Shown: positions 20,767 through 45,709, counted from the first letter of the stretch. The stretch is 64,000 nt of DNA from an uncultured Gammaproteobacteria bacterium (GCA_963797555.1 CAWCPV010000002.1:160001-224000); one strand, 5' to 3'. Notes: a model not told the origin generated them from the letters alone. Program-made: numbers and translations.

Positions 20767-22298
20767 TGCCGATGACGCGGGCAAATGTTGCGAGGAGACA
20801 GGGCGATGATTTCCAGGCAAGACTCTTTTGGCTGAAGGCGGTTGAGCTGCTGAAGCCCAAGAGTCCGGTGATCAGGGTCGCTTATGATGCCGGTCCCAAG
20901 AGCTTCGATGACATTATGGTTGAGTATGATCCGAACGCTGCGCCACCGGACCACGAGGGGAGCCCGATCTATCTCAGGCACATTCAGTGTAAGTGGCACA
21001 CGACGGCGGGCACCCTCGGGTACAAAGATCTGACCGACCCGGACTTCATCAACGCCCAGCGCTTCTCACTGCTTCAAAAGGCACATCAGGCCCAGGCCCG
21101 GCATGCGCCGGATGGGCTTGGCTGCCGATTCGAGCTTCTGACGAACTGGCGGATAAAGGCGGACGACCCTCTCTTGGAACTGGTCAGGAAGGAAAGCGAT
21201 GCGCTCGACCTTAGCAGGCTGTTTGACGGCACCACCGATCGAAGCCGGATGGGACAGGTCCGCAAGCTATGGTGCCAGCATCTTGGACTAGATTACGCCG
21301 GTTTGAATCTGGTTGCGCGCACTCTGGCGGTGGCAGAAGCGCCGGAATCGCTTGCCAGCCTACGTGAGCGGTTGGACGACAAATTTGCCGTGGTTGGTAT
21401 GAAGCGCGTCCCGGCTTGTGAGTCCGCCTTCTTGTATGATGACCTGATCGCCAAGCTTCTCGCTCAGGGGCGGGTGGAATTTGACCGAGACGGCTTCGCC
21501 GACATGGCTCGCAGGGAAGGAATTCTTGACAAGCAGGCCCGGCCTGAGCACGTCCTAGTGATCGGCGTCCGTTCCTTCATGCATCCAATCGATCCCTTGG
21601 AGGACCGCTGTGAGCGCATGCTCAACCTCGTGCCCTATTTTGATGGCCGCTATATCCGCAACGACACAGACTGGCAGGAGCGCATACTTCCCGAGCTACG
21701 AAACTTCGTACTCGATTCGGCCCGGTCAACGGACAGCCTGCGACTCATCCTGGACGCCCACGTTTCCCTTGCGTTTGCCGTCGGTGCCATCCTAAACGTC
21801 AAATCCGGCAAGCACATAGAGATTGAGCAGCGGATCGGCGGCCGCCGCTATTGGTCGATGGATGACCAGGCAGCTGATCCGGGCTGGCCCATGTTTGAAT
21901 TCGATGAGGAGGTTCTTGATGCCCATGCCGACGGGGTCGCGCTCGCTATCGGTCTGACACATGATGTATCTGGCGGAGGCCGCAGCTTTCTCAAAGCAGA
22001 GGCTCCCGGAATAGGGAGGCTCCTACATTGGCGGCCTCAAGGCGGCGCTTCCCAACAATCGGTAGCTTGCGGCCGTCACGCCTGGATGCTCGCCGAAGCG
22101 GCCGTGCAGCGGATTCGGCGTCTGCGCGAGTCCCGACCGGGAGCAGACCGGCTGCAAGTGTTCATCGCCGGCCCGAACGCCTTTACGTTCTTCCTCGGCC
22201 AGCACCAGCAGGCTCTCGGTTCGGTGGCAGTGTACGAATGGGACTTCGACGGCCAGCGAGGAGGGGGGTACAGCCTCGGGCTGTTACTCGGCCCCTAA
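20766..22298 (+). CDS. CBASS effector, Cap4-like endonuclease-SAVED protein
   Basis: GDDFQARLFW..FDDIMVEY..HIQCKWH nuclease motif; SAVED motifs LDAHVSLAFAVG and FIAGPNAFTFFLGQ; ATG overlaps the cyclase stop. Confidence 0.85.
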   Translation: MPMTRANVARRQGDDFQARLFWLKAVELLKPKSPVIRVAYDAGPKSFDDIMVEYDPNAAPPDHEGSPIYLRHIQCKWHTTAGTLGYKDLTDPDFINAQRFSLLQKAHQAQARHAPDGLGCRFELLTNWRIKADDPLLELVRKESDALDLSRLFDGTTDRSRMGQVRKLWCQHLGLDYAGLNLVARTLAVAEAPESLASLRERLDDKFAVVGMKRVPACESAFLYDDLIAKLLAQGRVEFDRDGFADMARREGILDKQARPEHVLVIGVRSFMHPIDPLEDRCERMLNLVPYFDGRYIRNDTDWQERILPELRNFVLDSARSTDSLRLILDAHVSLAFAVGAILNVKSGKHIEIEQRIGGRRYWSMDDQAADPGWPMFEFDEEVLDAHADGVALAIGLTHDVSGGGRSFLKAEAPGIGRLLHWRPQGGASQQSVACGRHAWMLAEAAVQRIRRLRESRPGADRLQVFIAGPNAFTFFLGQHQQALGSVAVYEWDFDGQRGGGYSLGLLLGP

Positions 22299-22301
22299 TA
22301 T

Positions 22302-25300
22302 TTACTCAGAACCCCGGGTTCTTGCGGTGATCATCATATACACCTTTTCTGCACGTATAGTTGCACCCATGTGCTCAAAGTAGTGTGCGGCTCGCTTCAT
22401 CCACCGCAACGCGTTCGCCACATGCCCTTCGCAGGCACGCATCTCGCCAATACGCCAGAATACCTCAGCACAATCGTAAGGACTCTCGATAGTCTGGTAA
22501 ATTGCGGCTCTTTCCGGAATCGTGTGGGTAGCAATGGCTATGGCGTGGGGGCATCTGCCTGATCTCCGACACCAGCGGGTGTGTTGAACGGCGAGGCGGG
22601 CAGGTGGGCCAGGTTGCCGGCGATGAGGTAGGCGATGGTGATGAGCGAGTGCGTGGTGCGGTAGCCCCGGGCGCGAGCCTTGGCGGCCTGGATGAGGGAG
22701 TTGATGCCCTCGGCGCGGCCGTTGGTGAGGCCCGAGTGGAACGCAGCGAGCACGCCGTCCCAATGCTCCTTGAGGGTGGTGGCGAGGCGCTTCATGGGCT
22801 GCAGGCGGCTACGCCGTGCCCAGCTATACCAGCGCCCGAGGGCGCTCTCGGCCTGCTCGAGGGTGCTGGCCGTGGCGTAGATATCGCGCAGCGCCTCCTT
22901 GAGGCGCCAGGCGCGGGCGGTCTTGAGGCGGGCGCGGGAGAGCCAGTGGAAGTCGGTGAGTTGGTCCCAGCCAGGTCCAGCGGGTGCCCCTGAGGGCGGG
23001 CTCGGTCTTGATCTCCTGGCGGCGCACCGCGTCGACCGCCTCGTTGGCGAGCTTGATCACATGGAAGGCATCGAAGCTCACCGTGGCCTGGGGCAGATGC
23101 TTGGCCACCCCGGCGCGGTAGGCGGCGGACATGTCGATGCACACCTGCTCGATGGCCTGCGGGTCGCCGCCGTGCGCCTTGAGGTCGGCGGCGAAGGCCG
23201 CCACGGTGCTCTGGTCGCGGCCCTCGCAGGCGAACAGCAGGCGTTTTCCCGTGAGGTCATGGAACAGGCTGATGTAGTGCTGTTCACGCCGGGCAGCGGT
23301 CTCGTCCAGGCCCACAGCGCTCACCTGCGAGTGGTCCTCCTGAGCACGGGCCCTGCCTACGTAGCGATCGAGCACCCCCCACAGGCGCTCATCGCCCACA
23401 CCCAGGTGCCGAGCCACGGTCGCCACCGGCATGGCCTGGCACAGCGTGACCACCAGCGCCTCCATCAGCGCCGTGAAGCCACTGTGGGCGCGCGCCCACG
23501 GCGCTTCGACCTGGGTCGTCTTGCCGCAGGCCTCGCAGCGCACCCGCGGCAGATGCGCGTGCAGGTACGCCCGTGACTTAAAGAAGCTCAGGTGCTGCCA
23601 ACTGCGCTCCCAGGTGTCGTGCACCGGCTGGCCTTGCACTCCGCAGGCCGGGCAGGCAAAGCGGCTGCCCTTGGCAAACGCCACCTCGAGGTCGATGCGC
23701 CCAGCCTCGGGGTCGAACCGCACGTCGGTGACCTCCCAAGGCGCTGTCAGGCCCAGTGCCGTGGTAAACAGATGCGTGGGCCGCACGGTGCTCCCCCCTT
23801 GGATGACGGCCTGTGGATTTGTGGACGAGTCCTGCGGAGCGGCCCGCGTCCCAAGGACCGTGTGGACAACCTCCCGGTTGCCCACACTCGCGGGCCTCTC
23901 GCCCACAACCCCACAAGCCCACAAGCCCAACCACAAGATGTTGTGATAAGCGACCAGTCAGGGCAAATGCTACTTCACCACCGCGACCCACACAATTTCC
24001 GAAAGAGCCTAAATTGCCCGCGCATCACGATATAGTTTGCGTGCCTCAGGGCAATTGCCTAACATCCGTCGGAGATCGCCCAATCCTCGAGTACAGTGAC
24101 CCTCTCCCATCCTGTCCCCAATATCGCGGCAATCCCTCAAAGCTCTACGGTATAGGGCTTCCGCGTCCGGAAATTGCTTGTGATGAAGATGCACCTCTGC
24201 GAGCCCCCAGATAGAGTGGGCTTCTCCCAACCTATCCCCGATTTCGGAGCAGATTCTCTGAGCTGATTCATAGTGCGCCTGTGCTTTATTAAGTTCCCCA
24301 TTATCAAGATGTACGTGGCCAAGACCCCTTATACAGGTTGCTTCTCCTAAACTATCTTGGTTCTCTACACACAATCTAAGGGCTTCCTGATATCGGTCTT
24401 TCGCGCCCTGGAGATCGCCTAGGTCGAGATAGACGTGGCCTAATCCCCAAATGCCGTGCGCCTCTCCTTCATCGTCATGAATTTTCCGACAAATGGTCAA
24501 AGCATCGTTATATTTCTCCTGTGCTTTATCGTATTGAGCCAGCATGCGGTAAACGTGCCCCAACCCCCTCAGACAGGTAGCCTGGCCAAGCTTGTCAGAA
24601 ATATCCGTGTAGATGATCAAAGCTTGACCATAAAACGCCCTGGATTCCCGGTACTTATCCAGCATCCGACGGGTGTTGGCCAGACCCCGGATGCAATTCG
24701 CTTGGCCCCGCTTATCATCAGCGTCGATGTAAATGTTGAGCGCTTTCTCATAGTTCGATTGCGCTTCTGGGTATTCGTCGAGTCTCCGATGCACATCAGC
24801 AAGACCGCACACGCAGGTTGCCTCATCCCGGACATCCGTCACGCCGTGGGCCGCGCCCGCGCCCTCCTGAAACCGTTGCTTAGCTTCGGAGCCCGACAGC
24901 GCGAAGGAGTAGAAAGGTACCAGAGAGGCGGTAAGGCGTGCGAAGCGGGATGCCTCGCCGCGTTCTTTTATCCGATCCATCGCTGCGTGGATATTCAGCA
25001 GTTCGACAGAGAAAAGCCGAATCGCCTCCCGTCGCGGCTGAGCCTCCTGAGCCGCAACCACCAGATCTTCGTAATGCGAGGCGTGGCGATCCTTGGCCTC
25101 GGCACGGTCGTTGGGGGTGCACCGACCGTCCCCATAGTCCCGTAACAAGTCGTGGAGGTGGTATCGGTTACTCGCCGAGTTCCACTCGACCAGACTGCGC
25201 GTCTGTAGGTCACTGAGCCGGTCCGCAGCGGAAAAGCGATCCATAGCCCAGACTGCAGCGGCGCTCGCCCGGTCAAAAGTATCCGGAAACACGGACAGGC

Positions 25301-26636
25301 TCCGCCAGATAAGCTGCAAGTCTGGGGTGAGCAGATCGTAGCTCAGGCTGAAGGATGCATTGACGAGTTCAACACGCTGGCTGCGTTCCGTGAGCCTTTG
25401 GTAATACTCTCCTGCGCTCAAATCGATGCGCACAGAGACGGCGCTTGCTGCAACGCGCAACGCCAGCGGCAGATAGCCGCAGAGCCGCGCTATAACTTCG
25501 AATGCCTTCTCTTCACGGCCACCGAGCACAGGAATCACAGTGTCCAGTCTAGGCGCAATACCAAGCAGCAGCCTATGGGCTTCCTTTGAGGGCAGCGGGT
25601 CGATATGCTTAGGATACAGCCCAGGAAGAGTGAAAGACTCGCGCGAAGTTGCGAGCAGGAGGCAACCCTTGGGTGGAATGAGGGCCTCAAGCTGTTCCGG
25701 TCCCGCAGCGTTATCGATGAGAATCAAGACCCGCTTGTCACGCAGCACGGACAGATACAGTCCTCTAAGCACCCCCTCGCTTTCGAGCACGCTAACTGTG
25801 GGGTGAAACGATCGGACCACGTGGGCTAGTGCGTCATGTGACGTTAGTGGCCTCCGGTCTGCGCCCTTGAGGTCTAAATAAATTTGGGCATCTGGATAGC
25901 CCGAACCGAGATCCTCCGCAAACTTCAGCACCAGCGCCGTCTTACCCACCCCAGCCATGCCCCATACCAGTAAGATGGTGAGATGGGGTTGTTCGACGAC
26001 CGACAGGAGTTCTTCGAGTTGCACAGTGCGTCCGGTGAAGTCGACCGGTGGCCGTGGGAGCTGGTGCAAGCTGCTCAGGCTGGGGGTGGCAATGTCCTGC
26101 AGCTTGGAGCGCAGCACGTCGACCGCCAGCCGGTCGGCGTTGGCGAAGCGGATCTCCGGGTAGCGCTCGACCTCTGCCAGGCGCGTCAGGTGAGCCTGCT
26201 GGACGGCGCGCTGTGCCTCGTCCAGCCGGTAGAGTTCGTCCCGCGGGGCGCCGTCTTGCGGCACGGCGATGATCAGCACCTTGGCGTGATACAGCGCCAG
26301 CCACGCCTCCCACTGGGTGTAGGAGAGGGGGGGTGCGTCGGGCGCCAGGAAGGGAGCCAGCACCGGCAGTTGCTTGGCGAGATTCGGATAGCGTTTCCGG
26401 AGCACCGCCACCGAGGGCGGCTGGGCCAACGCCCCGGTCATGTCGCCCACCAGGTGGATCACCGCATCACAGCGGCGGATGTATTCGTCGAGCTTGTCCA
26501 GCGTCTCGGTGCCGGTGGCGATGAAGTCCTCCTGCACCTTGACCGTGACGTTGGGGCGGTCTAGGTCACGGCGCAGGGCGTCGCGGTAGCTCGCGAACTC
26601 CGCACTCACGGTGGACAGGAAGATCTGAACTGGCAC
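22302..26636 (-). pseudogene. DUF4062 - NB-ARC (STAND) - TPR protein interrupted near its 3' end by ISL3
   Basis: QIFLSTVSAEF..DAVIHLVG; HQLPRPPVDFTGR, GMAGVGKTAL, LILIDNA, CGYLPLAL, RYHLHDLLRDY; about seven TPRs; IS removal restores DARAI-YQTIESP. Confidence 0.85.
22506..24009 (-). mobile_element. ISL3-family insertion sequence, transposase frameshifted
   Basis: IRs begin GGCTCTTTC at both ends; 8-bp TSD TAAATTGC at 22498-22505 and 24010-24017; CPACG, GLDET, CIDMS, FDAFHV and TNGRAEGINSLIQ split over two frames. Confidence 0.92.
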
Positions 26637-26814
26637 AGCCTGCTCCCTTACCTCTTTTGTCGTTCTGCAGCCCCTCACGTCGCCCCAAGACGCACTCGCA
26701 GCACCGCGGGCCGGCCCCACCATCCCGTACTCATCGCCCGTCGAGGACAACAGCATGTCGCAGTTGGCGCGTGGGCTCAATAGGCGCTGTGGCCTCTCTG
26801 TCGCGGGCTGTCGC

Positions 26815-27470: not shown

Positions 27471-27529
27471 TACAAATCAGCCGCTTAGGCCGCTTCCGCC
27501 GGTCTTGAGCAAGACGAGTGCGGGACTTT

Positions 27530-27850
27530 TGCGGTACGCCCCCCGCAAACCAGCTCAGCGGCCTCCCTCAGGTTGGACAGTTCGGCGCTGGAGTAGTGGG
27601 TGGTGATGCCCCCCAATCTGTGCCCGCTCAAATCCTGCCGGTCTTCGATGCCACCCCCGCTGCGCGAACTCGACGCACTAAAGGTGTGCTTGAGGTCGTG
27701 AACGCGGACGTGGGGCAATTCTGCCCTAGCCCGCGCCCGCTTCCAGGCGGTGTTGTTCATCTTCCCACCGGCCGGCCTTGTTGATACGTGAAGACATGCT
27801 CGGCATGCTTTCCCCTCACATCTTCCACGACCGACCGCGCCCCGAAATGC
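27530..27850 (-). pseudogene. Tyrosine integrase C-terminal remnant
   Basis: HVFTY..MNNTAWKRAR..RVHDLKHTF..EDRQDLSGH..ITTHYS over two frames, pointing at the att repeat. Confidence 0.8.
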
Positions 27851-28069
27851 ACTCGCCTGACGCAACAAGTGACCATGCCGCGCGTAGTCTTGGAAAAACC
27901 GCAGTCCCTTATGTGTCGGAAATAAGGATCGGGCAGCGTGATGTGGCTCCGATTCTCTGAACAGAGGAATCGATTTTGTAGATGGTGAACCGCGGGTGCA
28001 GAGTTATCCACGGGGCCGCCGCCCGCCCTTCTCAGGCGGGAGGCGAGCGGCCCGGTGGGTAACTCGCGT

Positions 28070-28899
28070 TCAGGCTGCGAGCTTTTCGTCTTGCTGCCCA
28101 TAATACACGGCGTCCGGTGTCTGGTCTCCTAGCCCTTGATGCCGGCGTCGTTGATTGTAGAAAGTGAAGTACCGGCCGAGTTGGCGCTTGGCGTCCAGGA
28201 TCGACTCGTACGCCTTCAGATACACTTCTTCGTACTTCACGCTGCGCCACAGCCTCTCGACAAAAACGTTATCTATCCAGCGCCCGCGTCCGTCCATACT
28301 GATGCGGATGTCATGAGCCAGGAGCGCGCTCGTGAAATCCTTGTCGGTGAACTGGCTGCCCTGGTCGGTATTGAAGATCTCGGGGCGTCCGTGGAGCATG
28401 AGCGCCTCTTCCAGCGCCTCCATACAGAAGGAGGTGTCCATGCAGTTGGAAAGCCGCCAGGCCAGCACCCGGCGCGAGCACCAATCGATGATCGCCACCA
28501 GATAGGCAAAGCCCTTGGCCAGGGGAATGTACGTGATGTCCGTAGCCCAGACCTGGTTGGGTCGGGTGACCACTACATCACGCTAGCCAAGTAGGGCCAT
28601 ACCTTGTGGCCGGGGTGCGCATCCGAGAGCCGCGGCTTGCGGTACAACGCCTCGATTCCCATCTTGTCCCTCAATGTCTGGACGTGGCGCCGGCCGACCT
28701 CGAAGCCCTCGTCGCGCAACGCCCCGCGCATGCGCCGGCTGCCATAGAACGGGTGCTTTAGGTGCAGCTCGTCGATTGCCCGCATCAGCGCCAGATCCCG
28801 CGCCGACACCGCCACCGCCCGGTAGTACTGGGATGAGCGCGAGAGCCCCAGGAGCTGGCACTGCCGCGTCAGCGGCAATTCGGCCACCTTGTCGATCAT
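28070..28899 (-). pseudogene. IS3 transposase OrfB, broken near 28575
   Basis: HPFYGSRRM; RPNQVWATDITY, FNTDQGSQFT and DNVFVERLWRSVKYE in two ORFs. Confidence 0.85.
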
Positions 28900-29192
28900 C
28901 GCTTTGTCGCATCGCCGATGCGACCGAGCGCGACGGACAAAAAATCGTTCTCCAGCGTCAGCTGCCCGATCTTCGCCTGCATGTCCTTCACCGACGGCCC
29001 CGATTCGGACTTGCGTTCCCGCTCGAACACCTCGTCAGCGCGGCTCTGCAACTGCTGCTTCCACGCCAGGATCTGACTCTGATGAACCTGAAACTGCGCC
29101 GATAACTCCGCCAAGGTCTTGTCGCCCTTGATCGCCGCCAGTGCCACCCTTGCCTTGAATCCCGCTCCATGATTGCGCCTCTTGCCACTCAT
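28896..29192 (-). CDS. IS3 transposase OrfA
   Basis: RRNHGAGFKARVALAAI..KIGQLTLENDFL. Confidence 0.88.
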   Translation of the reverse strand: MSGKRRNHGAGFKARVALAAIKGDKTLAELSAQFQVHQSQILAWKQQLQSRADEVFERERKSESGPSVKDMQAKIGQLTLENDFLSVALGRIGDATKR

Positions 29193-29676: not shown

Positions 29677-31517
29677 ATGGCTGCGGAAGAGGACGCAATT
29701 GCGGACTTAGAGCACAAGCTACGCAGCCTCGAGTCGCTCCGCAGCGAGCTCGGGGACGCGCTCTTTAACCGCAAGCGAGCGGGGCTCGAAGCCCGGTTGC
29801 GGGACCTGCGGGAAGCGCGATCCGTTCAGACGCCTCGGAGATCCAGGCGGCGGGCGGCTCCGGGGCCCCACGTGGCAGGCGATGTCGACACCGGCGGCGG
29901 CCACTTCGTCGGCGGCAACCAGTACAAGTTCGAATACAGGGACCAGCCCCCGCGCGAGCTTCTTCTTGCCTATTACCGCTGCCTCGCCCAGGACTGCGCG
30001 CGCCTGCCGCTCGGCGTTGTAGACCCCCGTTTCGTGTCCGCAGGCAGCAAAAAAGAGGAGCTGTCGCTGGCGAGCATCTACACCGACCTCGACGTGGTGG
30101 CGTTGCCGCGGGAGCAGAACGAGGCGGCGGAGCGCTGGGGACTGCGCCTTGCCCGGGGCGAAGGTGGCGAGCGCACCCCGCTGCTCTCGGCGATCGCCGA
30201 CGACCGCTTCGCCCGGCTCGCCCTCATCGGCGACCCCGGCTCCGGCAAGACCACCTTCGTCAACTACCTGACCTTTCTGCTCGCCCGTGCGGCGGCGCCA
30301 GCGCTGCCGGGCGCGCTGAAGGGCTTGATCCCGGTGCGGCTCGTGCTGCGCAACGCCGTGCGTCACATCCCCGGGGAGGCCGAGAAGGGCAGCGGCGCGA
30401 TGCTCTGGGAGGCGCTCCGCGCCGACATCGAGGGGTATCTGGGGAGGGCGGCCACCGAACGGCTGTTCCCGCACCTGCAAGACCGCCTGCTGAAGCAGCC
30501 CGGTCTTTTCCTGCTGGACGGGCTGGACGAGGTGCCCGAGGCGGAGCACCGGCGGCGCTCGCTGCTGGAGGCCATCGCCGCGCTGGCCGGGAGCCTGCCG
30601 GTAGGCTCGCGCCTGCTGCTCACGGCGCGGCCCTACGCCTATGCCGATCCCAAGTGGCATCTCCCGGGATTCGAGCTGCTCGCGCTGTCCCCCTTCAGCG
30701 CCGAACAGGTGCGGCGGTTCGTGGGCCGCTGGTACGCGGCGGTACAGCCGGTGATGGGCTGGGATGCCGCCGCGGCGCAGGATCGGGCCCGGAAGCTCGA
30801 GCAGGTGCTGCTGGTCGAGCGGCCGGAGCTGGCGGACCTCGCGTCGCGCCCGCTGCTGCTCACGCTGATCGCCACCCTGCACACGAGCTGGGGACAGCTC
30901 CCGGACGACCGCGCCGACCTCTACGAGGAATCGGTCAAGCTCTTGCTGTCGCGCTGGCAGCGCGGCCGGGAGGTGCGGGGCGAGGACGGCAAGCCGGTGC
31001 AGGAGCCCGGCATCGCCCGGGCCCTGAGCTGGACGAGTCGGTCATCCGCGGCGCCCTGGAGCTGGGCTTGGCGCCATGGCGCCTGTCGCTGCCGAGTGAG
31101 GCCCAGTGGGAGAAAGCGGCCCGGGGGCCCGAGGGCCGGCGCTGGCCCTGGGGCGACGAGTGGGCCGAGGACCGTGCCAACACCCAGGAGGCCGGTCTTC
31201 AGGAGACGAGCGCGGTGGGCCTGTTTCCCAAGGGCAAGAGCGCATATGGCCTGCTGGATCTGGCGGGTAACGTCTGGGAGTGGACCACGAGCCGGTGGGG
31301 GCGCAGGTACTCTATGCCGGACTATCGCTACCCCTACGATGCGGCGGACGGGCGTGAAGACCTGAGCGGTTCTGATCCGTGCGTGGTGCGTGGCGGTTCC
31401 TGGGGCACCGCTCGGAGGGGCGCGCGCTGCGCCTGCCGCAACAGGGGTCCCGCGGACGACTTCGACAGCGACCTGAATTTTCGTGTCGTGGTGTCCCTGG
31501 CGGATTCTGGTTTCTGA
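29677..31517 (+). pseudogene. NACHT NTPase with C-terminal FGE-sulfatase (CLec-fold) domain; frameshift and internal deletion near 31030-31070; putative DGR target
   Basis: GDPGSGKTT, FLLDGLDEVP, TARPYAY, RPLLLTLIA; second frame LPSEAQWEKAARG, DLAGNVWEW, VVRGGSW..FRVV. Confidence 0.85.
31383..31496 (+). other. Putative DGR variable region (VR)
   Basis: Lies between RGGSW and FRVV; NNC/NNT codons at positions that are AAC/AAT in FGE-type template repeats; RT stub immediately downstream. Confidence 0.55.
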
Positions 31518-31557
31518 TTTCTGGATTCTGATGCGCTCGTCTTGAGGTAGTCCCGCC

Positions 31558-31707
31558 ATGGCTGTGCGCTTCGACCGGCTCTACCACGCCGTTACCACCT
31601 TCGACAACCTGTTCCGCGCTTACCGGAACGCAGCCCGAGGCAAGCGTGGTCAGCCGCAGGGCAGGTCCAGGGTGGCGAGCCATGACCTCTCGCGGCGAGC
31701 CTGGTAA
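31558..31707 (+). pseudogene. N-terminal stub of a DGR-type reverse transcriptase (not in ORF track)
   Basis: GAGGT RBS; MAVRFDRLYHAVTTFDNLFRAYRNAARGKRGQP fits the LxxxIxxFxNLxxAYxxAxxGKR start of DGR RTs. Confidence 0.65.
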
Positions 31708-31744
31708 GGTAAGGCATCGAGGCGTTGACGGAGGTTTCCGGACG

Positions 31745-31957
31745 ATGAAATATCGGGTTCTCATCGAGCAGGACGAGGACGGGATGTTCACAGCGCAGTG
31801 CCCTGCCCTGCCGGGATGTGTGACGCAGGGGCAGACACGGACCGAGGCCATCGAGAACATCCGGGAGGCGATCGCGGGCTACCTGGAGAGCCTGAAGAAA
31901 CACGGCGAGCCAGTGCCACCCTCGGTGGACGAGGAGATCGTCGAGGTCGCCGTTTGA
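31745..31957 (+). CDS. hicB: HicB family antitoxin (short)
   Basis: YRVLIEQDEDG..CPALPGCVTQGQTRTEAIENIREAI. Confidence 0.9.
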   Translation: MKYRVLIEQDEDGMFTAQCPALPGCVTQGQTRTEAIENIREAIAGYLESLKKHGEPVPPSVDEEIVEVAV

Positions 31958-32178
31958 CGCGGCTCCCGTCACTTTCCGGGCGTGAGCTGTGCAGGGTACT
32001 GGCGAAGTTCGGTTACGAGATCGACCACCAGACGGGCAGCCACCTGATTCTGCGTAACAGAATGCCGCCTCATCGCAGGCTGACCGTGCCGAACCACAAA
32101 GAGATCTCCAAGGGGACGCTGAGGGCGATCCTTCGGCAGGCAGGTTTGTCCGTGGAGGAGCTCCTGGAGGAACTGTGA
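31954..32178 (+). CDS. hicA: HicA family toxin
   Basis: TTG start; LPSLSGRELCRVL, QTGSHLIL, TVPNHKEISKGTLRAILRQAG. Confidence 0.9.
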   Translation: MTRLPSLSGRELCRVLAKFGYEIDHQTGSHLILRNRMPPHRRLTVPNHKEISKGTLRAILRQAGLSVEELLEEL

Positions 32179-32221
32179 GCGGGCCCCCCATACGAAGGGG
32201 CGGGGCGGAGGAAGGAGTGGA

Positions 32222-33415
32222 TTGACGCAGGAGCGGATGCCGGAATCGGTCGAGACTGGCGGCGGGGCGTACGTCGGCGAGGGCGTGAGCATGGGTGGTG
32301 GGACCTTCGTCGGCCGCGATCGAGATCGTCCTCATCGCCGGGTACAGCGCCGAGCAGTTGCAGACAGTGCTGCCGCGGTTGCGCGAGGCGCTGGCGGACC
32401 CGCAAGCGGGGCTGCGGGCGGACCCGAGCGGCGAGCGCATCACCGTCACAGCACCGCAGTCGCCGACCATCACATTGTCCCAGCAGGCGGCGGCTGACCT
32501 GCTGCCCGCCGCCGCACGCGAGGGGGACGAGCCAACCTATCTTGCGGCCCTCGCGGTGAGCCCCCGCTATGGCCGGTGGGCGACGCAGTTCGTGCCGCTG
32601 GCGGGCATGCTCGCGGAGCAGGAGCGTCCACCGGGCTGGGCCGAGATCCCGCCCGAGTTCACCGAGCTCGAGGTGATCGGTGAGGGAGCCCAGCGGCAAC
32701 TGCGCCGGGTGCGCCTCGAAGACATCACCGATGCGGTGCGGCGCCACCCGGCCCTGGCGCTCTTGGGCGAGCCGGGATCGGGCAAGACGACGACGCTGCA
32801 CCGGCTGCTGTTGGACGCCGCGCGGCAGCGGCTGACGGGGCAAGGCGGACCCCTGCCCGTGCTGTTGCCGCTGGCCGAGTACCGCGACTACCCCTCGCCG
32901 CACGCCTTTCTCCTGGCCCGCTGGGCACAGTCTCTGGGCGCGCTCGACCTGGCAGCGCACCTGCGTCGGGGCGATCTGCTCCTGCTCTGCGACGCGCTCA
33001 ACGAGATGCCGTTCCGTGACAGCCGGGACTACCGGGACCGCGTCGGCGCGTGGCGCCAGTTCGTCAAGGACTGGCCCGGCAACCGCCTGGTATTCACCTG
33101 CCGCAGCCGCGACTACAGTGAGCCGCTCGGGCTGCCGCAGGTCGAGATCGAGCGCCTCGACGACCCACGCATTGAGGATTTCCTCACCCGCTACCTCGCA
33201 CCGGCGCAAGCACAGGAGAGCTGGGCAAGGCTTCGGGGCTCGCCGCTCCTGGATCTGGTACGCAATCCTTACTACCTCACGATGCTCGCGTATCTGGTGG
33301 CTCGGGGTGGCGCATGGCCCGCGAGTCGGTCGGGCCTGTTCCAGGGGTTCACCGACACGCTGTTGAAGCGGGAAGAGACCCGCGGCCACTCCGACTGGCC
33401 GGGCAAGCAGCCGCC
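32222..33415 (+). pseudogene. Second NACHT protein; frameshift near 32320 and 3' truncation
   Basis: N-terminal TGGGAYVG..GGGTFVGRD; GEPGSGKTT, LLCDALNEMP, FTCRSRDY, RNPYYLTML; ends at a mobile mystery B fragment. Confidence 0.8.
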
Positions 33416-33501
33416 CTTCGCGCAGGGCCGCGAGATAGCGCCGGCGGGCTTCGCCGGCATCGGCCAGGTTCGCGCTGCCCCAGGTGAAACGTGGGCGGCC
33501 C
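33416..33501. repeat. 86-bp diverged copy of mobile mystery B segment 11963-12048
   Basis: Ungapped manual alignment, about 79/86 identical. Confidence 0.85.
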
Positions 33502-33623
33502 GACGGAGGTGTTCCCCGCTCGTTGGGCGGCGAACGGGTTGCAGACTTTACTGCAGGAGAGGGCGCATGCAGCTATGCGGTGGAACGCACCGCAAGGGGT
33601 TTCCGCCTACCCGAGCTGAACCT

Positions 33624-36155
33624 TCACGCCCGCGCCCGCGCCGCCAGCACGAGCCGGTGGGTCGCCTTGTAGACGCTTGCCGAGAGCCGGCGCGACATCT
33701 GCTCGAGTGGCAGCCGGAGTGCGCGCGCCAGGCGAGCAGAAATCCACAACAGCTTTTCGACCGTTTCTGCGAAGCGGCGATCAGCTTCCCCCCCGGCGAG
33801 GCTTAGCAGCTCACGCGCGGAGGCGGCCACCCCTTGGTAATCGCCTTGGTGCGCCTGTGCATCCAGTAAGGCAAACAGACTGCTCCAGCTCCGCTCCTTC
33901 GCATGGTGTTCACGGGCAAACTCAATCGCCTCGTTGAGCAGGCCCAGCCGACGCAGGCACGCGACGCGCAGCCTTTGCAGGTCTTCCGGCAGGGTATGTC
34001 CGGGGAAGACCCCCGCGTAATCATCCAACAGCTGTAGGCACTGGCGAGAGTCCGGTCCGTGCCAGGCCGCCCAGGCCGATAGATAGACCGTCGCAGCGGT
34101 AGCTGCCCGCGCCAGCAGTACATCCCGGTGCTGCCGGATGTACTCCCACTCGCCGGCCCGCGCCTTGAGCCGACATGCCTCAATGAGGTAGGAGAAAACG
34201 CCTGACTCACGGTAGGCGTGGTCCAGGAAATCGAACCAAGGGCGCCACTCGCCGCTGTCCTCGAAGCGTTGGTACGCACACACCGACAGCAACCTACGCC
34301 GATGTGCGGCATCAGTCTCGTTGCGCCCCTCTTCCTCGGCCACATCCACCTGTCCGGTCGCGAGGAGCGCGTGCACCCGCCAATGTCTCCAGCCGGGCTG
34401 TGCGTCGGCTTGGACGAAGCGCGCTCGGGCCTCGTCCAGGATCGCCAACGCCTCGTTAGCCTTGCCAGCCTCGATCAAGAGCGCACAGAGCAGCCCTGCC
34501 TGGTCAAGGTAACGCTTATTCTCGGGGGTCACTGCTCGTAACGCCTGTTCCGCCCGCTCCCGGTCGAACAAGACTTGCTTTGCAAGTCCCCACAACAGCG
34601 CCAAGGGGTGACCCCAATCCAAGTCGAGCAATTCCCGGAATGATTCTTTAGCCTGGTCACCCGCCTCCAGGGTGTGGACCACACACAGAAAACACCAGAA
34701 CCGACAGCGCCACCGGGCTTGTGGGTCACCCTCCAGCTCAGCGGCTAACTGCGCCAGCTCCTCGGCGGCTCGGCTCAGCCGCGCGCGGGCCTCGTCGTCT
34801 TGTCGCAGCAACTCCAGTTGGAACGGGTGCGGCACAAGCGGATTGTTGCCATCGAGAGCAGCCGGGGCGCAGGCTCCCCAGAAGTCGGCAATCGCTCTGA
34901 ACTCCCGCACGGTGTGCCAGTGTGGTTGCGCGGTGTAAGCCTCCTCCAACAGCGCCCGGGCCCCGGCGGCATCGCCTTGCAGCAGGGCAGCCATCCCTTG
35001 CAGCCGCAAAGTTTCGGCATCCGGCTCTATCCCCGGCGGCAGGGTCTGGAGCCGAGTCACGGCCTGCTCCAGACAGCCAAGTTCCAAGAGCAACGCGCAA
35101 TGGAAGTTGAAGGCCGGCAGAGTGCGCGTCTGCTCGGTCAGCCGCAGCGCCTCGTCCATGTGGCCAGCCCGGTAGGCGAAAACCCCGCGGGCGGCGCTGT
35201 CGTCACCTTTCGGGTCCAGTTCATGCGCTTCCTCCAGCAGGGCCTTACACTGCGCTTCTACTGTCTCTGCTTGCAGCTCGTAGATGGCCAGGGTGCGCAG
35301 AATCCTAGCGCGCACGATATGGTCTAGTGCATCCCACGTCGGATAGCTGCGCAGCGCGCGCAGTTCTTCCAGGGCCGTTGTGTGCCGACCAGAGCGGTAT
35401 CGTTCGCGGATGTCATCGAGATTCTCGGCGAGATGTTGCGAGAGAGCGTCGGCAAGCTTCAGGTTCTGGTCACCGAATGCTGCCAGCATTAAATCTCGCG
35501 TCCGTTGCTCGACGCGCAGGGGTGGCTGGAAACCGGGCTCCCCGGAAGCGATACTGAGTTCCCAGTCGGGGTTGGTCGGCTGAGGCGTGGACTCAGGAGC
35601 GGAGCCGCTCCGCTCATCGCCCGGCGGCGGCAAGGACCATCGCTCACGGACATAATTCGTGATATGGCGCCGCAGCAATTCCTCGAACTGAGGCCGGCCT
35701 TTGTACGACCACCACAGCCCTTCTTTGGGAAACTCTTCACGGAACCGGAGAACACGTCCCCACTGCTCGGTCTCTGCCGGAGATTGTGGGGAGTAAGGCT
35801 TCTGATTGAAGTACACCATGATCTGTGGCCGCCCGCTCCGCTGCCATGCCTCATAGCCGCGCTGAAGCTCGTGCTTGGTACCGGATTGGGCGTGTGCGGT
35901 CGGTGTACCAAAGCGCTTCCAGAAGATTCCGATGAGGAGATCGCATTCTTCGATGCGAAGGATGGGGTCGATGAGCCCCTGTGGGCCATCTGCGTGCAAA
36001 CCGGGATAAATGTCGGTCTCCCAGCGATAGAGCTGCAAGTGCAGGCCGCGGTCGGCGGCGACGCCGCGGTTGAGATCTTCAACCACCTTCGCGACGGCGT
36101 CTCGTTCCCGCTGGACGTCGCCGGGAGATGCGACGACCACCCGCAATGCCTTCAT
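33624..36155 (-). CDS. DUF4062-like N-terminal domain plus long helical/TPR-like region, probably 3'-truncated
   Basis: VVVASPGDVQRER, RWETD, CDLLIGIFWKRFGTPT, SGTKHE, PQIMVYF; Ala/Leu-rich helical repeats. Confidence 0.7.
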   Translation of the reverse strand: MKALRVVVASPGDVQRERDAVAKVVEDLNRGVAADRGLHLQLYRWETDIYPGLHADGPQGLIDPILRIEECDLLIGIFWKRFGTPTAHAQSGTKHELQRGYEAWQRSGRPQIMVYFNQKPYSPQSPAETEQWGRVLRFREEFPKEGLWWSYKGRPQFEELLRRHITNYVRERWSLPPPGDERSGSAPESTPQPTNPDWELSIASGEPGFQPPLRVEQRTRDLMLAAFGDQNLKLADALSQHLAENLDDIRERYRSGRHTTALEELRALRSYPTWDALDHIVRARILRTLAIYELQAETVEAQCKALLEEAHELDPKGDDSAARGVFAYRAGHMDEALRLTEQTRTLPAFNFHCALLLELGCLEQAVTRLQTLPPGIEPDAETLRLQGMAALLQGDAAGARALLEEAYTAQPHWHTVREFRAIADFWGACAPAALDGNNPLVPHPFQLELLRQDDEARARLSRAAEELAQLAAELEGDPQARWRCRFWCFLCVVHTLEAGDQAKESFRELLDLDWGHPLALLWGLAKQVLFDRERAEQALRAVTPENKRYLDQAGLLCALLIEAGKANEALAILDEARARFVQADAQPGWRHWRVHALLATGQVDVAEEEGRNETDAAHRRRLLSVCAYQRFEDSGEWRPWFDFLDHAYRESGVFSYLIEACRLKARAGEWEYIRQHRDVLLARAATAATVYLSAWAAWHGPDSRQCLQLLDDYAGVFPGHTLPEDLQRLRVACLRRLGLLNEAIEFAREHHAKERSWSSLFALLDAQAHQGDYQGVAASARELLSLAGGEADRRFAETVEKLLWISARLARALRLPLEQMSRRLSASVYKATHRLVLAARARA

Positions 36156-36308
36156 GCTCCGCCCGCCCTATCGTGTTCTTGCAACGCGCAGTCGTTGGGC
36201 GTCCGTTCCGCCAACCGCTGCGCACTCATGATACGGCAGGACAGACCACAGTGTTTCAGCCATGACCCGGACGACACAGGGCTTCCTGGTTCAGCCCATT
36301 TGCCCTCT

Positions 36309-36520
36309 CTACCCTTCCGTGAAGTGGTCCGAGTCCATCCTCTTGACTGCATAGGACGCGACTGGGCTCACGCCCACGCTGTGCTCCACCATAAGCTGGG
36401 CGAGGGCCTCTCCGTCGATGAGGATGGTCCGGGTGTCGATGCCCGGATGCGCGAGGCGCAGTTTTGGGCGTCCTTGGTGAAGGTCGAGGTCAATGATAAA
36501 GACCCCCTTCTTCGCTCGAT
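36309..36520 (-). pseudogene. mrr: Mrr restriction endonuclease C-terminal remnant
   Basis: Across frameshifts: RAKKGVFI / TSTFTKDA / IDTRTILIDGEALAQLMVEHSVGV..VKRMDSDHF. Confidence 0.72.
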
Positions 36521-36718
36521 TCCTAGGCGTCTCGTTGGGACAACGTCGCAGCCGCGTGGGTTACTCGTTCCCCCTTACCTTCGACCGCGAGAAGGATATC
36601 CAACTCCCTCTCCGTCACCCCGGCTTCCTGGGCCAGCTCGGTCCATTGGCGCGCGGCTTCCTCCCGCTGGCAAGCGCGGAAACGCCCGCGGCAGGGCAGG
36701 GTAACCAACAGGAGCTTC

Positions 36719-37234
36719 ATGGCAATGGCAACTAAGCGTTCCGATGAAGCGAGCCGCACGGACCAGCGGAGTGTGTCGGTGACCGGACAGGTGAGCGTGC
36801 GCGGAGGTGGGGAATCGAGTTCTCCGCGCACTCGTAGCGTGGTGGATACCGGTGGCGGCGCTTACATCGGTGGCAATGTTACAACCGGCGGCGGGGACTT
36901 CATCGGCCGTGACCAGATCAAGACCGTCACGTCCAACCTGATGGGCCGCCAGCAGGGGATCACCGTCGAGGAGTTTCTGCGGCTGCTCGAGGAGGTGCGC
37001 GCGCTCTTGGCGCGCTCCGAAATCGAGCAGGACACCGTCGAGGTGGTCGAGGGCGACATCAAAGTCGTGGAGCAGCAGGCTGCGAAGGAAAAGCCCAATG
37101 GCACCATCATCAAGAGCAAGCTGAAGAGCGCGGAAGAGATGGTTGAGAGCGCCGGAAAAGCCACCGAGGGCATCGAGAAGCTCGTCTCGGTGCTGGTCAG
37201 GCTGGTGCAGATGGCAACCGCGCTGTTCGCGTAA
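36719..37234 (+). CDS. Small protein: Gly-rich amyloid-like N-terminal motif plus helical C-terminal domain
   Basis: AGGAG RBS; VDTGGGAYIGGNVTTGGGDFIGRDQ; amphipathic helices ending LVSVLVRLVQMATALFA. Confidence 0.75.
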   Translation: MAMATKRSDEASRTDQRSVSVTGQVSVRGGGESSSPRTRSVVDTGGGAYIGGNVTTGGGDFIGRDQIKTVTSNLMGRQQGITVEEFLRLLEEVRALLARSEIEQDTVEVVEGDIKVVEQQAAKEKPNGTIIKSKLKSAEEMVESAGKATEGIEKLVSVLVRLVQMATALFA

Positions 37235-37691
37235 TCGCTGGCATTACCGAAAGTCCCCAAAGGGTTTTCGGCACCTCGGCGCATGTCGAGACGCATACGC
37301 CTGCGGCTCGATAGCAGTAACGCAGACGCGCGGGAGGCCTGCAGGATCGAGTCGGGCGGGGCGCGTGGGCCTCTCGGAGGCAGGCCGGGTCGCTTGGAGG
37401 CGACCTGCATCGTGGCGCGGAAAGTGGGCGCGCCCCAAGGAGGGAAACCCATCGCACGGCGTCTACTGACCAGCCGCGAGGCCGGCGCCTTCGAAGCGGC
37501 AGCCGAGAGCATCGTCCCGGATCATGCCGCTCACGCGTGTTCCGTCATGACCCCGCAGTACGTCTAGCTTCCGCTGCGCCTGCACTCGCTGCGCGCGGTG
37601 GCCTGCGCGGGATTGCCCACCGGCGGTTTCGGGAATACCATTGAGCCCTACTCATCCCCCCGAGGGCCCAGCGCCAGGCTCACCATCCTCG

Positions 37692-38222
37692 ATGGCCAGT
37701 CACCTCGTCATCTCCGCGCTAGGACGTGACCATCCCGGCATTGTAGACGCGCTCAGCCAGGTAATCCTGGAGGCGGGAGCGAATATCGAGGATAGCCGCA
37801 TGACCGTGCTGGGCGGCGAATTCGCCGTGCTGATGCTGGTCTCCGGGAACTGGAATGCTGTTGCCAAGCTGGAGTCGGCCCTGCCGGGGCTCCAGGACAA
37901 GCTGGATCTCGTCATTACCAGCAAGCGTACCCAGCCGCGGGCACCGCAGCCCAGGCTGCTGCCGTATGCCGTGGAGGTCGTGACCATGGACCACCCCGGC
38001 ATCGTTCACGAGGTCGCCAGGTTCTTCTCGAGCCGCAACATCAACATCGAGGACCTGGCTACTGACAGCCACATGGCCCCGCACACGGGTACGCCCATGT
38101 TCAACCTCACGATGAAGATAAGCGTTCCCGGCGACCTCTCCATCGCTGCTCTGCGCGAAGAGTTCATGGATTTCTGCGACGATCTCAACCTGGACGCGGT
38201 GATCGAGCCAGTCAAGGGTTAG
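37692..38222 (+). CDS. gcvR: GcvR-like double-ACT protein
   Basis: LVISALGRDHPGIV, NIEDSRMTVLGGEF and DHPGIVHEV. Confidence 0.85.
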   Translation: MASHLVISALGRDHPGIVDALSQVILEAGANIEDSRMTVLGGEFAVLMLVSGNWNAVAKLESALPGLQDKLDLVITSKRTQPRAPQPRLLPYAVEVVTMDHPGIVHEVARFFSSRNINIEDLATDSHMAPHTGTPMFNLTMKISVPGDLSIAALREEFMDFCDDLNLDAVIEPVKG

Positions 38223-43678: not shown

Positions 43679-45709
43679 ATGAGCGAAGCCTCTGTCCCGG
43701 CAGAGCTGTCCAAGGCGTTAATCCACTCCGAGCTTGACGGCAGGAGGCGGGTCGTCATCGAGGGCGTGAAGCCTGAGGTAGACGGCGGGCGGTTTCCGAT
43801 CAAGAGGGTGATGGGCGAGTCCGTAGTGGTGCAGGCCGATGTGTTCGCCGACGGCCACGACACGCTGGCGTGCCGCGTGCTGTACCGGCCCGAATCGGCT
43901 GCAGAGTGGCGTGCCGTCGCCATGAAGCCGATGGCCAACGACCGCTGGGAGGCGGTCTTTCCGGTGACGGACGGCGGACGCTATCGGTACACGGTGGAAG
44001 GATGGGTGGACGCTTTCCAGACTTGGCGCCGCGACCTGGTGAAACGACGGCAAGCGGGTCAGGACCTCACAGTGCCCTTGCTGGTGGGCGCCGACCTCAT
44101 CGAGCAGACGGCAACACGCGCACCGTCCCCCGACGGGGAGCGGCTGAACGCTTGGGCAGGGGACCTGCGGAGTGAGCGCAGCCAGGACCTGCGGTACCAC
44201 CTAGCCATGGACGAAGAGCTGGCCGTGGCCGTGGGGCGTTACCCGGATATGGATCTCATCACGCGCTACGAGCGGGAGCTGTCGGCGGTGGTGGACCGGG
44301 AGCGTGCCCGATACGGCGCCTGGTACGAGCTGTTTCCACGCTCCGGCGACCAAGGTGTCCACGCTACCTTCGAGGATTGCGAGGCGCGGCTGCGCTATGT
44401 GGCGGAGATGGGGTTCGACGTACTGTACCTGCCGCCGGTGCATCCCATCGGGCTGTCGCACCGCAAGGGCCGCAACAACAGTCCCGTTGCGGCGCCGGGA
44501 GACGTGGGCAGCCCTTGGGCCATCGGCGCCCCAGAGGGCGGCCACAAGGCGGTGCATCCGCAGCTAGGCACCCTGGAGGACTTCCGGAGCCTCGTCGAGC
44601 GCGCCCGCGAGCTGAACATCGAGATGGCCATCGACATCGCCTTCCAATGCTCCCCGGACCACCCCTACGTCAAGGAGCATCCAGAGTGGTTCCGCCTCAG
44701 GCCGGACGGCACTGTCCAGTACGCGGAGAACCCGCCGAAGAAGTACCAGGACATCTACCCCTTCGACTTCGAGACCCGGGAATGGCGTGCCCTCTGGGAC
44801 GAGCTGCGGGACGTGGTGCTGTTCTGGATCGGCCACGGGGTAAGGATCTTCCGGGTGGACAACCCCCACACCAAGCCCTTCGCGTTCTGGGAATGGCTTA
44901 TCGCAGAGGTCAAGGCGCGTCATCCGGAGGCTCTGTTTCTGGCCGAGGCATTCACCCGGCCCAAGATCATGCATCGCCTGGCCAAGCTCGGCTTCACCCA
45001 GTCCTACACATACTTCACTTGGCGCAACACCAAGTGGGACCTCACGCAGTACTTCACAGAGCTGGCGCAGGGCGAAGGGCGGGAGTACCTGCGGCCCAGT
45101 CTGTGGCCGAACACGCCGGATATCCTCAACGAGTACCTGCAGTTCGGCGGACGCCCCGCGTTCGTCGTGCGGCTCGTGCTGGCGGCCACCCTGGGTGCGA
45201 GCTACGGCATTTACGGCCCCGCTTTCGAGCTGATGGAGGCGCAGCCACGGGAGGCCGGCAGCGAGGAGTATCTCGACTCGGAGAAGTACCAGCTCGGGCA
45301 GTGGGACATCGACCGCGAGGACAGCCTGCGCGACCTGATCACGCGCGTCAACCGCATCCGCCATGACAACCCCGCGCTGCACGGAGACTGGAGCCTGCGT
45401 TTCCACGCGGTGGACAACGATCAGCTCATCGCCTACAGCAAGCGGGCGGAGGAGGAGAACGACGCGGTGCTGGTGGTGGTGAATCTGGACCCTTACCACA
45501 CCCAGGCGGGATGGCTGGAACTGCCGCTCCAGGAGTTCGGGCTCGATCCCCGCCAGCCGTACCAGATGCACGACCTGCTGAGCGGCGCGCGCTATATCTG
45601 GCACGGGGCGCGGAATTACGTGGAGCTGGATCCCCAGAGCTATCCCGCGCACATCTTCCGTCTGCGCCGCCGGGTGCGCACCGAGCGCGATTTCGAGTAC
45701 TACCTCTGA
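43679..45709 (+). CDS. glgE: Alpha-1,4-glucan:maltose-1-phosphate maltosyltransferase
   Basis: WYELFPRS, YAENPPKKYQDIY, FRVDNPHTKP and LAEAFTRP. Confidence 0.95.
   Translation: MSEASVPAELSKALIHSELDGRRRVVIEGVKPEVDGGRFPIKRVMGESVVVQADVFADGHDTLACRVLYRPESAAEWRAVAMKPMANDRWEAVFPVTDGGRYRYTVEGWVDAFQTWRRDLVKRRQAGQDLTVPLLVGADLIEQTATRAPSPDGERLNAWAGDLRSERSQDLRYHLAMDEELAVAVGRYPDMDLITRYERELSAVVDRERARYGAWYELFPRSGDQGVHATFEDCEARLRYVAEMGFDVLYLPPVHPIGLSHRKGRNNSPVAAPGDVGSPWAIGAPEGGHKAVHPQLGTLEDFRSLVERARELNIEMAIDIAFQCSPDHPYVKEHPEWFRLRPDGTVQYAENPPKKYQDIYPFDFETREWRALWDELRDVVLFWIGHGVRIFRVDNPHTKPFAFWEWLIAEVKARHPEALFLAEAFTRPKIMHRLAKLGFTQSYTYFTWRNTKWDLTQYFTELAQGEGREYLRPSLWPNTPDILNEYLQFGGRPAFVVRLVLAATLGASYGIYGPAFELMEAQPREAGSEEYLDSEKYQLGQWDIDREDSLRDLITRVNRIRHDNPALHGDWSLRFHAVDNDQLIAYSKRAEEENDAVLVVVNLDPYHTQAGWLELPLQEFGLDPRQPYQMHDLLSGARYIWHGARNYVELDPQSYPAHIFRLRRRVRTERDFEYYL

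Follow-up and report, generated by a model that had tools for sequence, protein, structure and literature searches.

A glycine-rich repeat that may couple NACHT-FGS sensors to small partner proteins, seen in a decayed gammaproteobacterial locus

Immune receptors are known to be coupled to effectors by short self-associating motifs in fungi, in mammals and, from recent work, in one Escherichia coli antiphage system. Among bacterial counterparts, the closest in the accessible text of the reports are the NLR/effector gene pairs named BASS1-10 (Dyrka et al. 2020, bioRxiv 10.1101/2020.01.06.895854) and the BASS11 Bab/Agp antiphage system (Ibarlosa et al. 2024, bioRxiv 10.1101/2024.11.07.622273), together with the EAD principle and the EAD-STAND NTPase-FGS counter-invader systems linked to diversity-generating retroelements (DGRs) (Kaur et al. 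2020, PMC7159879; 2021, PMC8195603). Here we describe a glycine-rich repeat shared by three genes lying within 7 kb in a 64,000-nucleotide stretch of DNA from an uncultured Gammaproteobacteria bacterium (GCA_963797555.1, CAWCPV010000002.1:160001-224000). This stretch, hereafter the window, corresponds to positions 160001-224000 of contig C2 of the source genome (G000). Two of the genes, NACHT1 and NACHT2, encode NACHT receptors and the third a stand-alone 171-aa protein. The repeat is probably a homotypic coupling or adaptor module comparable to EADs and BASS motifs, and perhaps amyloid-like, of a conflict (anti-invader) system, defunct here, built on NACHT proteins with an FGE-sulfatase (FGS) domain.

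One repeat in three neighbouring genes

A search of all six reading frames of the 5,345,739-base (5.35 Mb) genome with the strict expression [VIL]x[TSMLVA]GGGx[YF][VI]G returned the repeat V-x-T-GGG-x-[YF]-[VI]-G five times, and all five occurrences fall in NACHT1, NACHT2 and the 171-aa open reading frame (ORF) (Table 1). A looser core expression yields 20 matches in the six frames, the remaining 15 all lacking the V-x-T prefix. At the DNA level, the back-translated pattern ACNGGNGGNGGNNNNTWYRTNGGN matches the window four times against 0.00 expected, with four or more matches in 0 of 100 shuffles; a shorter pattern matches the genome seven times, five of them at these genes, and its reversed control three times. 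A chance origin of the shared motif is excluded. The genome-wide search and the DNA shuffles agree with the initial annotation, which had been made from the sequence and had placed a common motif at these positions in all three genes.

The unit of 12 residues comes in two forms, TGGGAY[IV]GG and TGGG[DT]F[VI]GRD, which align in register (T, GGG, an aromatic residue, V/I, G, then N or D). Partner proteins carry two in-register pseudo-repeats, NLRs often one. About 22 residues are conserved across the two-fold repeat, with T, GGG, V and F invariant and GRD nearly so. Without exception the motif marks a domain boundary, and it is predicted to be disordered: in AlphaFold2 monomers its pLDDT stays below 50, both in the 171-aa protein and in a relative with a longer repeat tract (L007), where a beta-solenoid was sought and the tract remained disordered. 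In L007, L026, L047, L063, L068 and other loci, the core repeats extend into longer G/D/V-rich runs of short repeats (e.g. GDEVRGDKILGDRITVGDISG), so repeat tract length varies among relatives. NCBIfam returned no match for the motif or for the 171-aa protein, and four motif strings gave no match in a full-text literature search.

The initial annotation had called the three genes otherwise unrelated, which does not hold for the two receptors: NACHT1 and NACHT2 belong to one motif-NACHT-FGS family, an ancestry that is clear from their alignments. By tblastn, homology of NACHT1 to full-length relatives (L002, L018, L033 and L057 proteins; 48-59% identity) ends near 31026. Residues 1-381 of the 909-aa protein from a Thiodictyon metagenome-assembled genome (L002) align at 29884-31026 with 59% identity, residues 765-909 align at 31080-31514 in a different frame, and three other relatives show the same break. 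Pfam FGE-sulfatase matches the frame 30654-31517 (3.8e-26). As assembled and by this comparison, NACHT1 carries an internal deletion of about 370-380 codons. Its motif is decayed as well; in the N-terminal alignment with orthologues the first repeat is gone and GRD is replaced by GGN.

NACHT2 breaks frame near 32322, directly after ...FVGRD. Its body is 64% identical to residues 33-396 of an Anaerolineales protein of 946 aa (L020_10111_946), and homology ends near 33413, where the gene for an 843-aa DUF4062-TPR protein occupies the expected place of the 3' part. By the same kind of alignment, the assembled NACHT2 is frameshifted and 3'-truncated, with about 550 codons, covering the helical and FGS sensor part, gone. 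No intact NACHT-FGS protein is present in the window, NACHT1 being internally deleted and NACHT2 lacking FGS. The 171-aa gene is preceded by AGGAG 5 nt upstream of its start (an alternative start lies at 36725); a promoter and terminator scan of 36100-37700 found none. Two further points of the initial annotation are borne out: the motif precedes the NTPase in both NACHTs, with N-terminal repeats and NACHT downstream, and tblastn with full-length relatives agrees, as assembled, that both receptors are broken and the small gene is intact. The system appears, from these sequences, to be a decayed relic in a defence island, with both sensors pseudogenes and the partner as its sole intact gene.

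A motif family that links sensors to separate partners

To describe the motif elsewhere, one genome per species was scanned with two motif-derived peptide patterns. Among 135 matching stretches, 92 were confirmed, giving 78 distinct loci: by record labels, 63 from Chloroflexota, 13 proteobacterial (including Competibacteraceae, Thiodictyon and Accumulibacter), 1 from Nitrospiraceae and 1 from Uhrbacteria. The core pattern is present in 99 ORFs of these loci, including a few short ones that are spurious. Of 1.84 billion cluster representatives, 1,031 match a 37-position profile of the double repeat at E <= 0.001, and 52 of these also pass E <= 1e-10. The best 150 of the 1,031 were sorted with custom hidden Markov models (HMMs) and regular expressions: 58 have the motif followed by a helical tail (26 of the window type, 32 of the TCAD2 type), 20 have it at the C-terminal end, 4 at the N-terminus of a long Walker-A protein, 10 gave no regular-expression match, and 58, many of them fragments, were unclassified.

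Specificity extends to five other whole genomes (5.5-7.8 Mb), in which the DNA pattern has 3, 4, 4, 6 and 4 matches and its reversed control 0. All are confined to one or two clusters of <8.5 kb per genome, save one lone match in G045. The possibility that the motif is a generic linker of many unrelated proteins was rejected, there being no occurrence elsewhere in six genomes. On its sequence distribution, the motif is a portable module.

The sensors are 850-1,300 aa long, with the motif placed 100-160 residues ahead of Walker A, and those scanned proved to be NACHT plus FGS in every case (8/8 Pfam-scanned; tblastn agrees). Other NTPases with an N-terminal motif include nSTAND1 and NB-ARC proteins, and one arrangement places EAD9 before the motif and NACHT. 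Of the NACHT, NB-ARC and nSTAND1 proteins with the motif, most have FGS as their C-terminal domain. Partners are more varied. In one type, a Peptidase_C14 caspase, CHAT, TIR or TCAD9/APH-like kinase domain is followed by the motif and then by Pfam TCAD2 (PF19971, ternary complex associated domain 2). A second type has EAD7 or a caspase with the motif at its extreme C-terminus. Proteins of L020, L035, L045, L060 and L062 have the motif at the extreme C-terminus. A small type consists of motif and TCAD2 only (L022, TCAD2 1.8e-11). DUF4062/TIR-like domains are fused to the motif in L037, L040 and L006. A domain with two transmembrane (TM) segments plus the motif exists both as a separate 143-aa protein directly upstream of a motif-NACHT-FGS gene (L020) and fused to NACHT-FGS (L010, L027, L030, L033 and L077).

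Adjacency was evaluated for 38 small motif proteins. A NACHT-FGS gene lies within 8 kb of 19 and within 925 bp of 16, mostly collinear with the small gene. Co-occurrence of NACHT and small protein had been set as a test by the initial annotation; this adjacency, together with clustering in 5/5 genomes, indicates that the shared motif is a real and specific link between STAND/NLR N-termini and separately encoded partners. Seven of the 38 have, 0-39 bp upstream, a gene for a conserved protein of 725-880 aa (TM-TPR) that begins with 4-5 TM segments and has TPRs toward its C-terminus. This protein lacks the motif and occurs in Proteobacteria and Chloroflexota; it is absent from the source genome. 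L008, L012, L031 and L034 combine TM-TPR and a small motif gene with no NLR nearby. The bAvd family (7e-15) and families resembling reverse transcriptase recur in 6-7 motif loci. Motif copies are slightly more alike within than between loci (8.03 versus 7.06 of 15 positions; permutation p ~0.026, 32 within-locus pairs).

A repeat that is always at a domain boundary, predicted disordered and nearly invariant in GRD might also serve as a flexible hinge or processing site, for example one cleaved after the GRD Arg by a caspase-like (Arg/Lys-specific) protease, freeing the domain on one side. Caspase-family genes are present in 14/78 loci, the source genome has 9 caspase-domain matches, and fused forms retain the repeat between domains, all of which would suit such a site. 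However, a hinge or protease site would need far less than the roughly 22 residues conserved across this two-fold repeat, in which T, GGG, V and F never vary, and the repeat at the extreme C-terminus in the 20 representatives and five loci listed above leaves nothing to release. Moreover, split and fused pairs retain a copy on both halves, and no caspase gene lies in the window. We regard a hinge or cleavage site as unlikely.

The helical bundle of the partner protein

The AlphaFold2 model of the 171-aa protein is a four-helix bundle over residues 83-169 (pLDDT ~88), preceded by residues 1-79, motif included, at below 50. The protein has no Pfam family. It was found in 1/40 same-class relatives (G039), and about a dozen relatives share its length. 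Longer relatives place the motif and the same tail after a caspase (P0016-18, 5e-21 to 7e-16) or a TIR domain (P0019, 5e-10). PADLOC PDC-M14B profiles match residues 72-161 (4.4e-8). When 72 tails were sorted by custom HMMs, 38 were TCAD2, 24 belonged to the window family and 10 to neither. Alignment of window-type with TCAD2 tails by hhalign gave a probability of 71% (E 3.7e-5, 58 columns) with larger alignments, superseding 3.5% obtained with small ones. In ESM Atlas, a TCAD2 cluster ranks 12 for the window bundle, with a score of 0.89; no TCAD2 Pfam match exists in the whole source genome. Both kinds of bundle occupy the same slot, after the motif and with caspase or TIR upstream, and both are found downstream of a TM-TPR gene. 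A literature search found no function for TCAD2, returning among the matches listed plant CAD genes only, and gave no match for 'PDC-M14' or 'PDC-S60'.

Does the bundle act on membranes? The initial annotation had inferred that it does, with the NACHTs nucleating the small protein and its amphipathic helical C-terminus attacking the membrane. Set out in full, that model has an amyloid, prion-like repeat that would allow the NACHTs to template the 171-aa protein, whose helical C-terminus would permeabilise the membrane as a mirror image of HET-S/Bell executioners. A four-helix bundle is the general shape of HeLo, MLKL and Bell domains, and the partner domain here has it. The shared motif, the gene adjacency and the disorder of the motif in the monomer model also fit. 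Two in-register repeats on the partner, often with one on the NLR, match what the available text describes for HRAM, BASS1 and BASS6 (bioRxiv 10.1101/2020.01.06.895854). In addition, hydrophobicity in the window protein peaks in its last helix (1.59 for the best 18-residue window), and a membrane protein, TM-TPR, adjoins in 7/38 loci.

Other features speak against this scheme. Caspase, TIR, CHAT and kinase-like effectors are themselves followed by this bundle or, at the equivalent position, by TCAD2, which is accessory behaviour; because the bundle comes after caspase and TIR domains, we read its slot as accessory and not as that of an effector. The last helix is amphipathic and not transmembrane-like: over 19 sequences the last 18 residues have a mean Kyte-Doolittle value of 0.66, with 1-5 charged residues in 19/19, so that no hydrophobic helix is conserved. 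An N-terminal hydrophobic helix of the Bell/HeLo type is missing too. Similarity to HeLo, Bell or MLKL domains was sought with no HeLo-type match in Pfam, and Foldseek against the PDB gave generic helical bundles only (best E 0.15; 0 at E <= 0.001). The 2-TM domain joined to the motif in the same systems is, by its sequence, a better membrane-acting candidate than the four-helix bundle. Membrane attack by the helical C-terminus was not upheld, and we consider an executioner of this kind improbable. The reversed topology noted alongside it is upheld: the motif does stand ahead of the helical domain, and does so generally (the 58 of the best 150 representatives).

The 171-aa protein could alternatively be an adaptor-only regulator which, like CARD-only or PYD-only proteins, caps or competes for the sensor repeat and tunes or blocks the signal. 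It combines the motif and an accessory bundle with no effector domain, effector-bearing relatives carry the same two modules, and its gene is intact beside dead sensors. Yet in L005, L007, L010 and L022 a small protein of motif and bundle is often the sole motif partner beside the NACHT-FGS gene, so that a purely regulatory role would leave those sensors without output. We found no bacterial experimental precedent for such a regulator, although no search was aimed at one. This role seems very improbable to us.

Proposed mechanism, setting and relation to known systems

The homotypic coupling module remains our favoured reading, and the repeat most likely docks the partner onto the receptor, as its distribution in sequence suggests. 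From the observed motif specificity, architectures, adjacency, gene damage and helical fold model, we infer binding between copies, a possible beta or amyloid-like state and an output that might arise as follows. One copy would lie at the N-terminus of the sensor, here NACHT with an FGS ligand-binding domain, and further copies on separate partners. Ligand binding by the FGS domain would be followed by oligomerisation of the NTPase, which would gather the disordered N-terminal repeats. The gathered repeats would capture the repeat of the partner, possibly ordering into stacked beta structure as in BASS/HET-s, and the cargo of the partner would thereby be concentrated. The 171-aa protein would be an effector-less partner made of the repeat and a TCAD2-like four-helix bundle. 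Because relatives carry the bundle after caspase, TIR, CHAT or kinase-like domains, it is read as an accessory or docking module, for example toward the TM-TPR protein encoded upstream in 7 loci, and not as a killing device or pore former. Amyloid-like templating is plausible, because the repeat types align in register, the monomers are modeled as disordered, both as expected of a stacking beta-arch motif, and 12-residue rungs occur in known beta-helices.

Several points weigh against this mechanism. For binding and fibrils it rests on sequence and models. The motif itself was the bait, so the architecture counts describe motif-bearing loci and not an unbiased census. Among the 38 small motif proteins, 14 have neither NACHT-FGS within 8 kb nor TM-TPR nearby; several of the 14 come from short contigs, but in L001, L017 and L041 each flank extends for ~5-10 kb. 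The three motif pairs of the window agree at 4, 7 and 7 of 15 positions, no closer than random given the background of 7.06. Across phyla the motif also varies very little, whereas BASS pairs, in the text consulted, are described as diverging by lineage. In L006, L027, L037 and L077 a single chain has it flanked by an N-terminal domain and the NTPase, which fits a linker too. Finally, the bundle is only weakly tied to TCAD2, by a distant profile similarity: Pfam TCAD2 has no match at E <= 10 for the 171-aa protein and six close relatives.

A bolder extension of the coupling mechanism is possible, if doubtful. The GGG repeat might be a new cross-phylum beta-solenoid or amyloid-type motif, with a 12-residue rung, of NACHT, NB-ARC and nSTAND1 sensors, many with a DGR-diversifiable FGS domain. 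It would template mirror-image HET-S/Bell partners (motif, then TCAD2-type bundle), and the 171-aa form would either relay to the membrane TM-TPR protein or be an adaptor-only regulator.

The value of the locus lies in the motif family to which it points, the locus itself being a decayed remnant. If the repeat works like the established self-associating motifs, it adds a widespread family of at least 1,031 cluster representatives, found mostly in Chloroflexota and in proteobacteria of activated sludge and sulfur habitats, and a new domain order, motif then helical domain. Earlier BASS screens could not find this order because they were limited to the C-termini of Bell proteins. The adaptor role would give the uncharacterised TCAD2-type bundle a concrete function, and the motif is tied to NACHT sensors with FGS domains from loci in which DGR genes are present.

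The surroundings are those of a defence island with mobile-element debris, at 16-37 kb of the window (Table 1). Before the motif genes come, in order, an HTH-M78 regulator, the AAA, SMODS and SAVED genes, an ISL3 transposase, a 923-aa protein, an integrase fragment and IS3. Fragments on contig C14 are 75-80% identical to the N-terminus of the 923-aa DUF4062-STAND-TPR protein. The integrase fragment and IS3 beside NACHT1 are consistent with rearrangement of the locus. The HicB/HicA pair between the NACHT genes is not part of the motif system, and the 843-aa DUF4062-TPR protein is probably a separate defence gene; it was considered as a homologue of the conserved TM-TPR partner and rejected, there being no BLAST similarity. 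Downstream of the motif genes lie housekeeping genes: one for an ACT-domain protein, then further long intact ORFs.

Other copies exist in the source genome. On contig C3, a second cluster includes two further NACHT-FGS paralogues whose motif copies have degenerated. An in-frame TGA immediately precedes the motif of one, and the reading frame changes near the FGS domain in both. Alongside them are genes for a DGR-type reverse transcriptase and an Avd-like protein, a caspase gene that is truncated, an N-terminal NACHT fragment present as a duplicate, and another small-protein-like piece, itself broken (TM, motif and bundle start). FGS domains are present in many copies on contigs C3, C4, C5, C6, C7, C13, C14 and C20, and some apparent caspase frames on C14 adjoin FGS matches.

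Table 1. Features of the motif locus, its surroundings and selected related loci. Positions are those of the window unless a contig or locus is named.
Feature	Position	Strand	Content and support
NACHT1, 5' part	29677..31026	+	N-terminal coiled coil, one decayed and one kept repeat, NACHT; Pfam NACHT 7.9e-13
Motif in NACHT1	29869-29922		HVAGDVDTGGGHFVGGNQ
NACHT1, 3' remnant (other frame)	31029..31517	+	Last ~150 residues of FGS (C-type-lectin-like) sensor domain
NACHT2, start	32222..32322	+	Double repeat; matches residues 5-33 of the L020 946-aa protein, frame 2 (tblastn)
Motif in NACHT2	32246-32320		SVETGGGAYVGEGVSMGGGTFVGRD
NACHT2, body (next frame)	32322..33413	+	NACHT NTPase, Pfam 1.6e-10
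171-aa partner gene	36719..37234	+	Variable N-terminus, double repeat, four-helix bundle (residues 83-169, 36965-37225)
Motif in 171-aa ORF	36839-36916		VVDTGGGAYIGGNVTTGGGDFIGRDQ
CBASS-like operon	18049-22298	+	AAA ATPase (290 aa), SMODS nucleotidyltransferase (294 aa), SAVED protein (523 aa)
923-aa protein	24009-26780	-	DUF4062, NB-ARC/STAND, TPR
Phage-integrase C-terminal fragment and IS3-family transposase (orfA/orfB)	27485-29192	-	Directly upstream of NACHT1
HicB antitoxin	31646-31957	+	Pfam HicB_lk_antitox 8.9e-11
HicA toxin	to 32178	+	Pfam HicA_toxin 2.6e-20
843-aa protein	33624..36155	-	DUF4062 (TIR-like) and TPR-like, without motif; Pfam DUF4062 3.7e-4; PADLOC PDC-S60 1.7e-33
Second cluster	Contig C3, ~44600-54200 (L084 = 45762-48962)		Two NACHT-FGS paralogues and associated genes
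2-TM plus motif, separate protein	L020 9653-10084		143 aa
2-TM N-termini, fused	L010:106, L027:4730, L030:9758, L033:6053, L077:9440		2-TM consensus ...PPLLTF..NS.LIQ.L...
TM-TPR genes	L002 7700-9967, L006 5949-8246, L008 7806-9983, L012 7660-9879, L015 7182-9458, L031 4796-7312, L034 6945-9587		

Compared with BASS, as the accessible text describes it, the system shares a short G- and V/I-rich motif on the N-terminus of a NACHT or NB-ARC protein, a small adjoining and mostly collinear gene product, pseudo-repeats on the partner side and hosts that are largely filamentous or aggregate-forming. It differs in domain order, the motif being N-terminal to the helical domain here and C-terminal to the Bell domain in BASS; a C-terminal motif on an effector-type protein is not found in the 171-aa protein but does occur in other members (the 20 of the best 150; L020). 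The helical domain is TCAD2-like and not Bell, the sequence is nearly uniform across phyla, and the amyloid-like state is here only putative. The BASS11 residues named in that text (T85, I87-G88-S89-V90, Q92, D99, N100) do not map onto the repeat. We did not find the motif described among BASS1-11, a comparison made with their text descriptions rather than their logos or profiles.

Like HET-S/NWD2, with its HRAM motif, the system combines one repeat on the NLR N-terminus with two in-register pseudo-repeats on the partner and a motif that is disordered before activation (here by prediction), and it exists in both all-in-one and split architectures. It departs from HET-S/NWD2 in its reversed domain order, in a repeat unit of 12 rather than ~21 residues, and in that nothing here points to a membrane-inserting helix or prion behaviour. 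The likeness to TCAD2 lies in a bundle of ~90-100 aa directly after the motif, in N-terminal caspase or TIR partners and in the TM-TPR gene upstream in both sub-families; unlike TCAD2 proper, the 171-aa protein falls below the Pfam model, and the similarity is seen only from profile to profile (71%).

The EAD systems, in the parts of the reports consulted, resemble this one most in logic. One copy is on the N-terminus of the core NTPase and others on caspase, TIR and other effectors, often in adjoining genes. In both, the sensor is a C-terminal FGS domain, DGR reverse transcriptase and bAvd genes are linked, and genomes have several sensor paralogues. The slightly greater likeness of adjoining copies, given above, may be a further parallel; the window pairs are not elevated. 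EADs are folded domains of at least ~60 residues, alpha or alpha+beta, whereas the repeat has 12-24 residues, is glycine-rich and is predicted to be disordered; no Pfam EAD model covers it in the window proteins or their relatives, and it co-occurs with EAD7 and EAD9 in one chain. The logic matches the EAD, EAD-NTPase-FGS/DGR and BASS frameworks as their accessible text presents them, and the principle is a known one, seen here in a motif and layout for which we found no earlier description; what sets this system apart is the sequence of the motif, its uniformity across phyla, its position ahead of the helical domain and the TCAD2 type of that partner domain.

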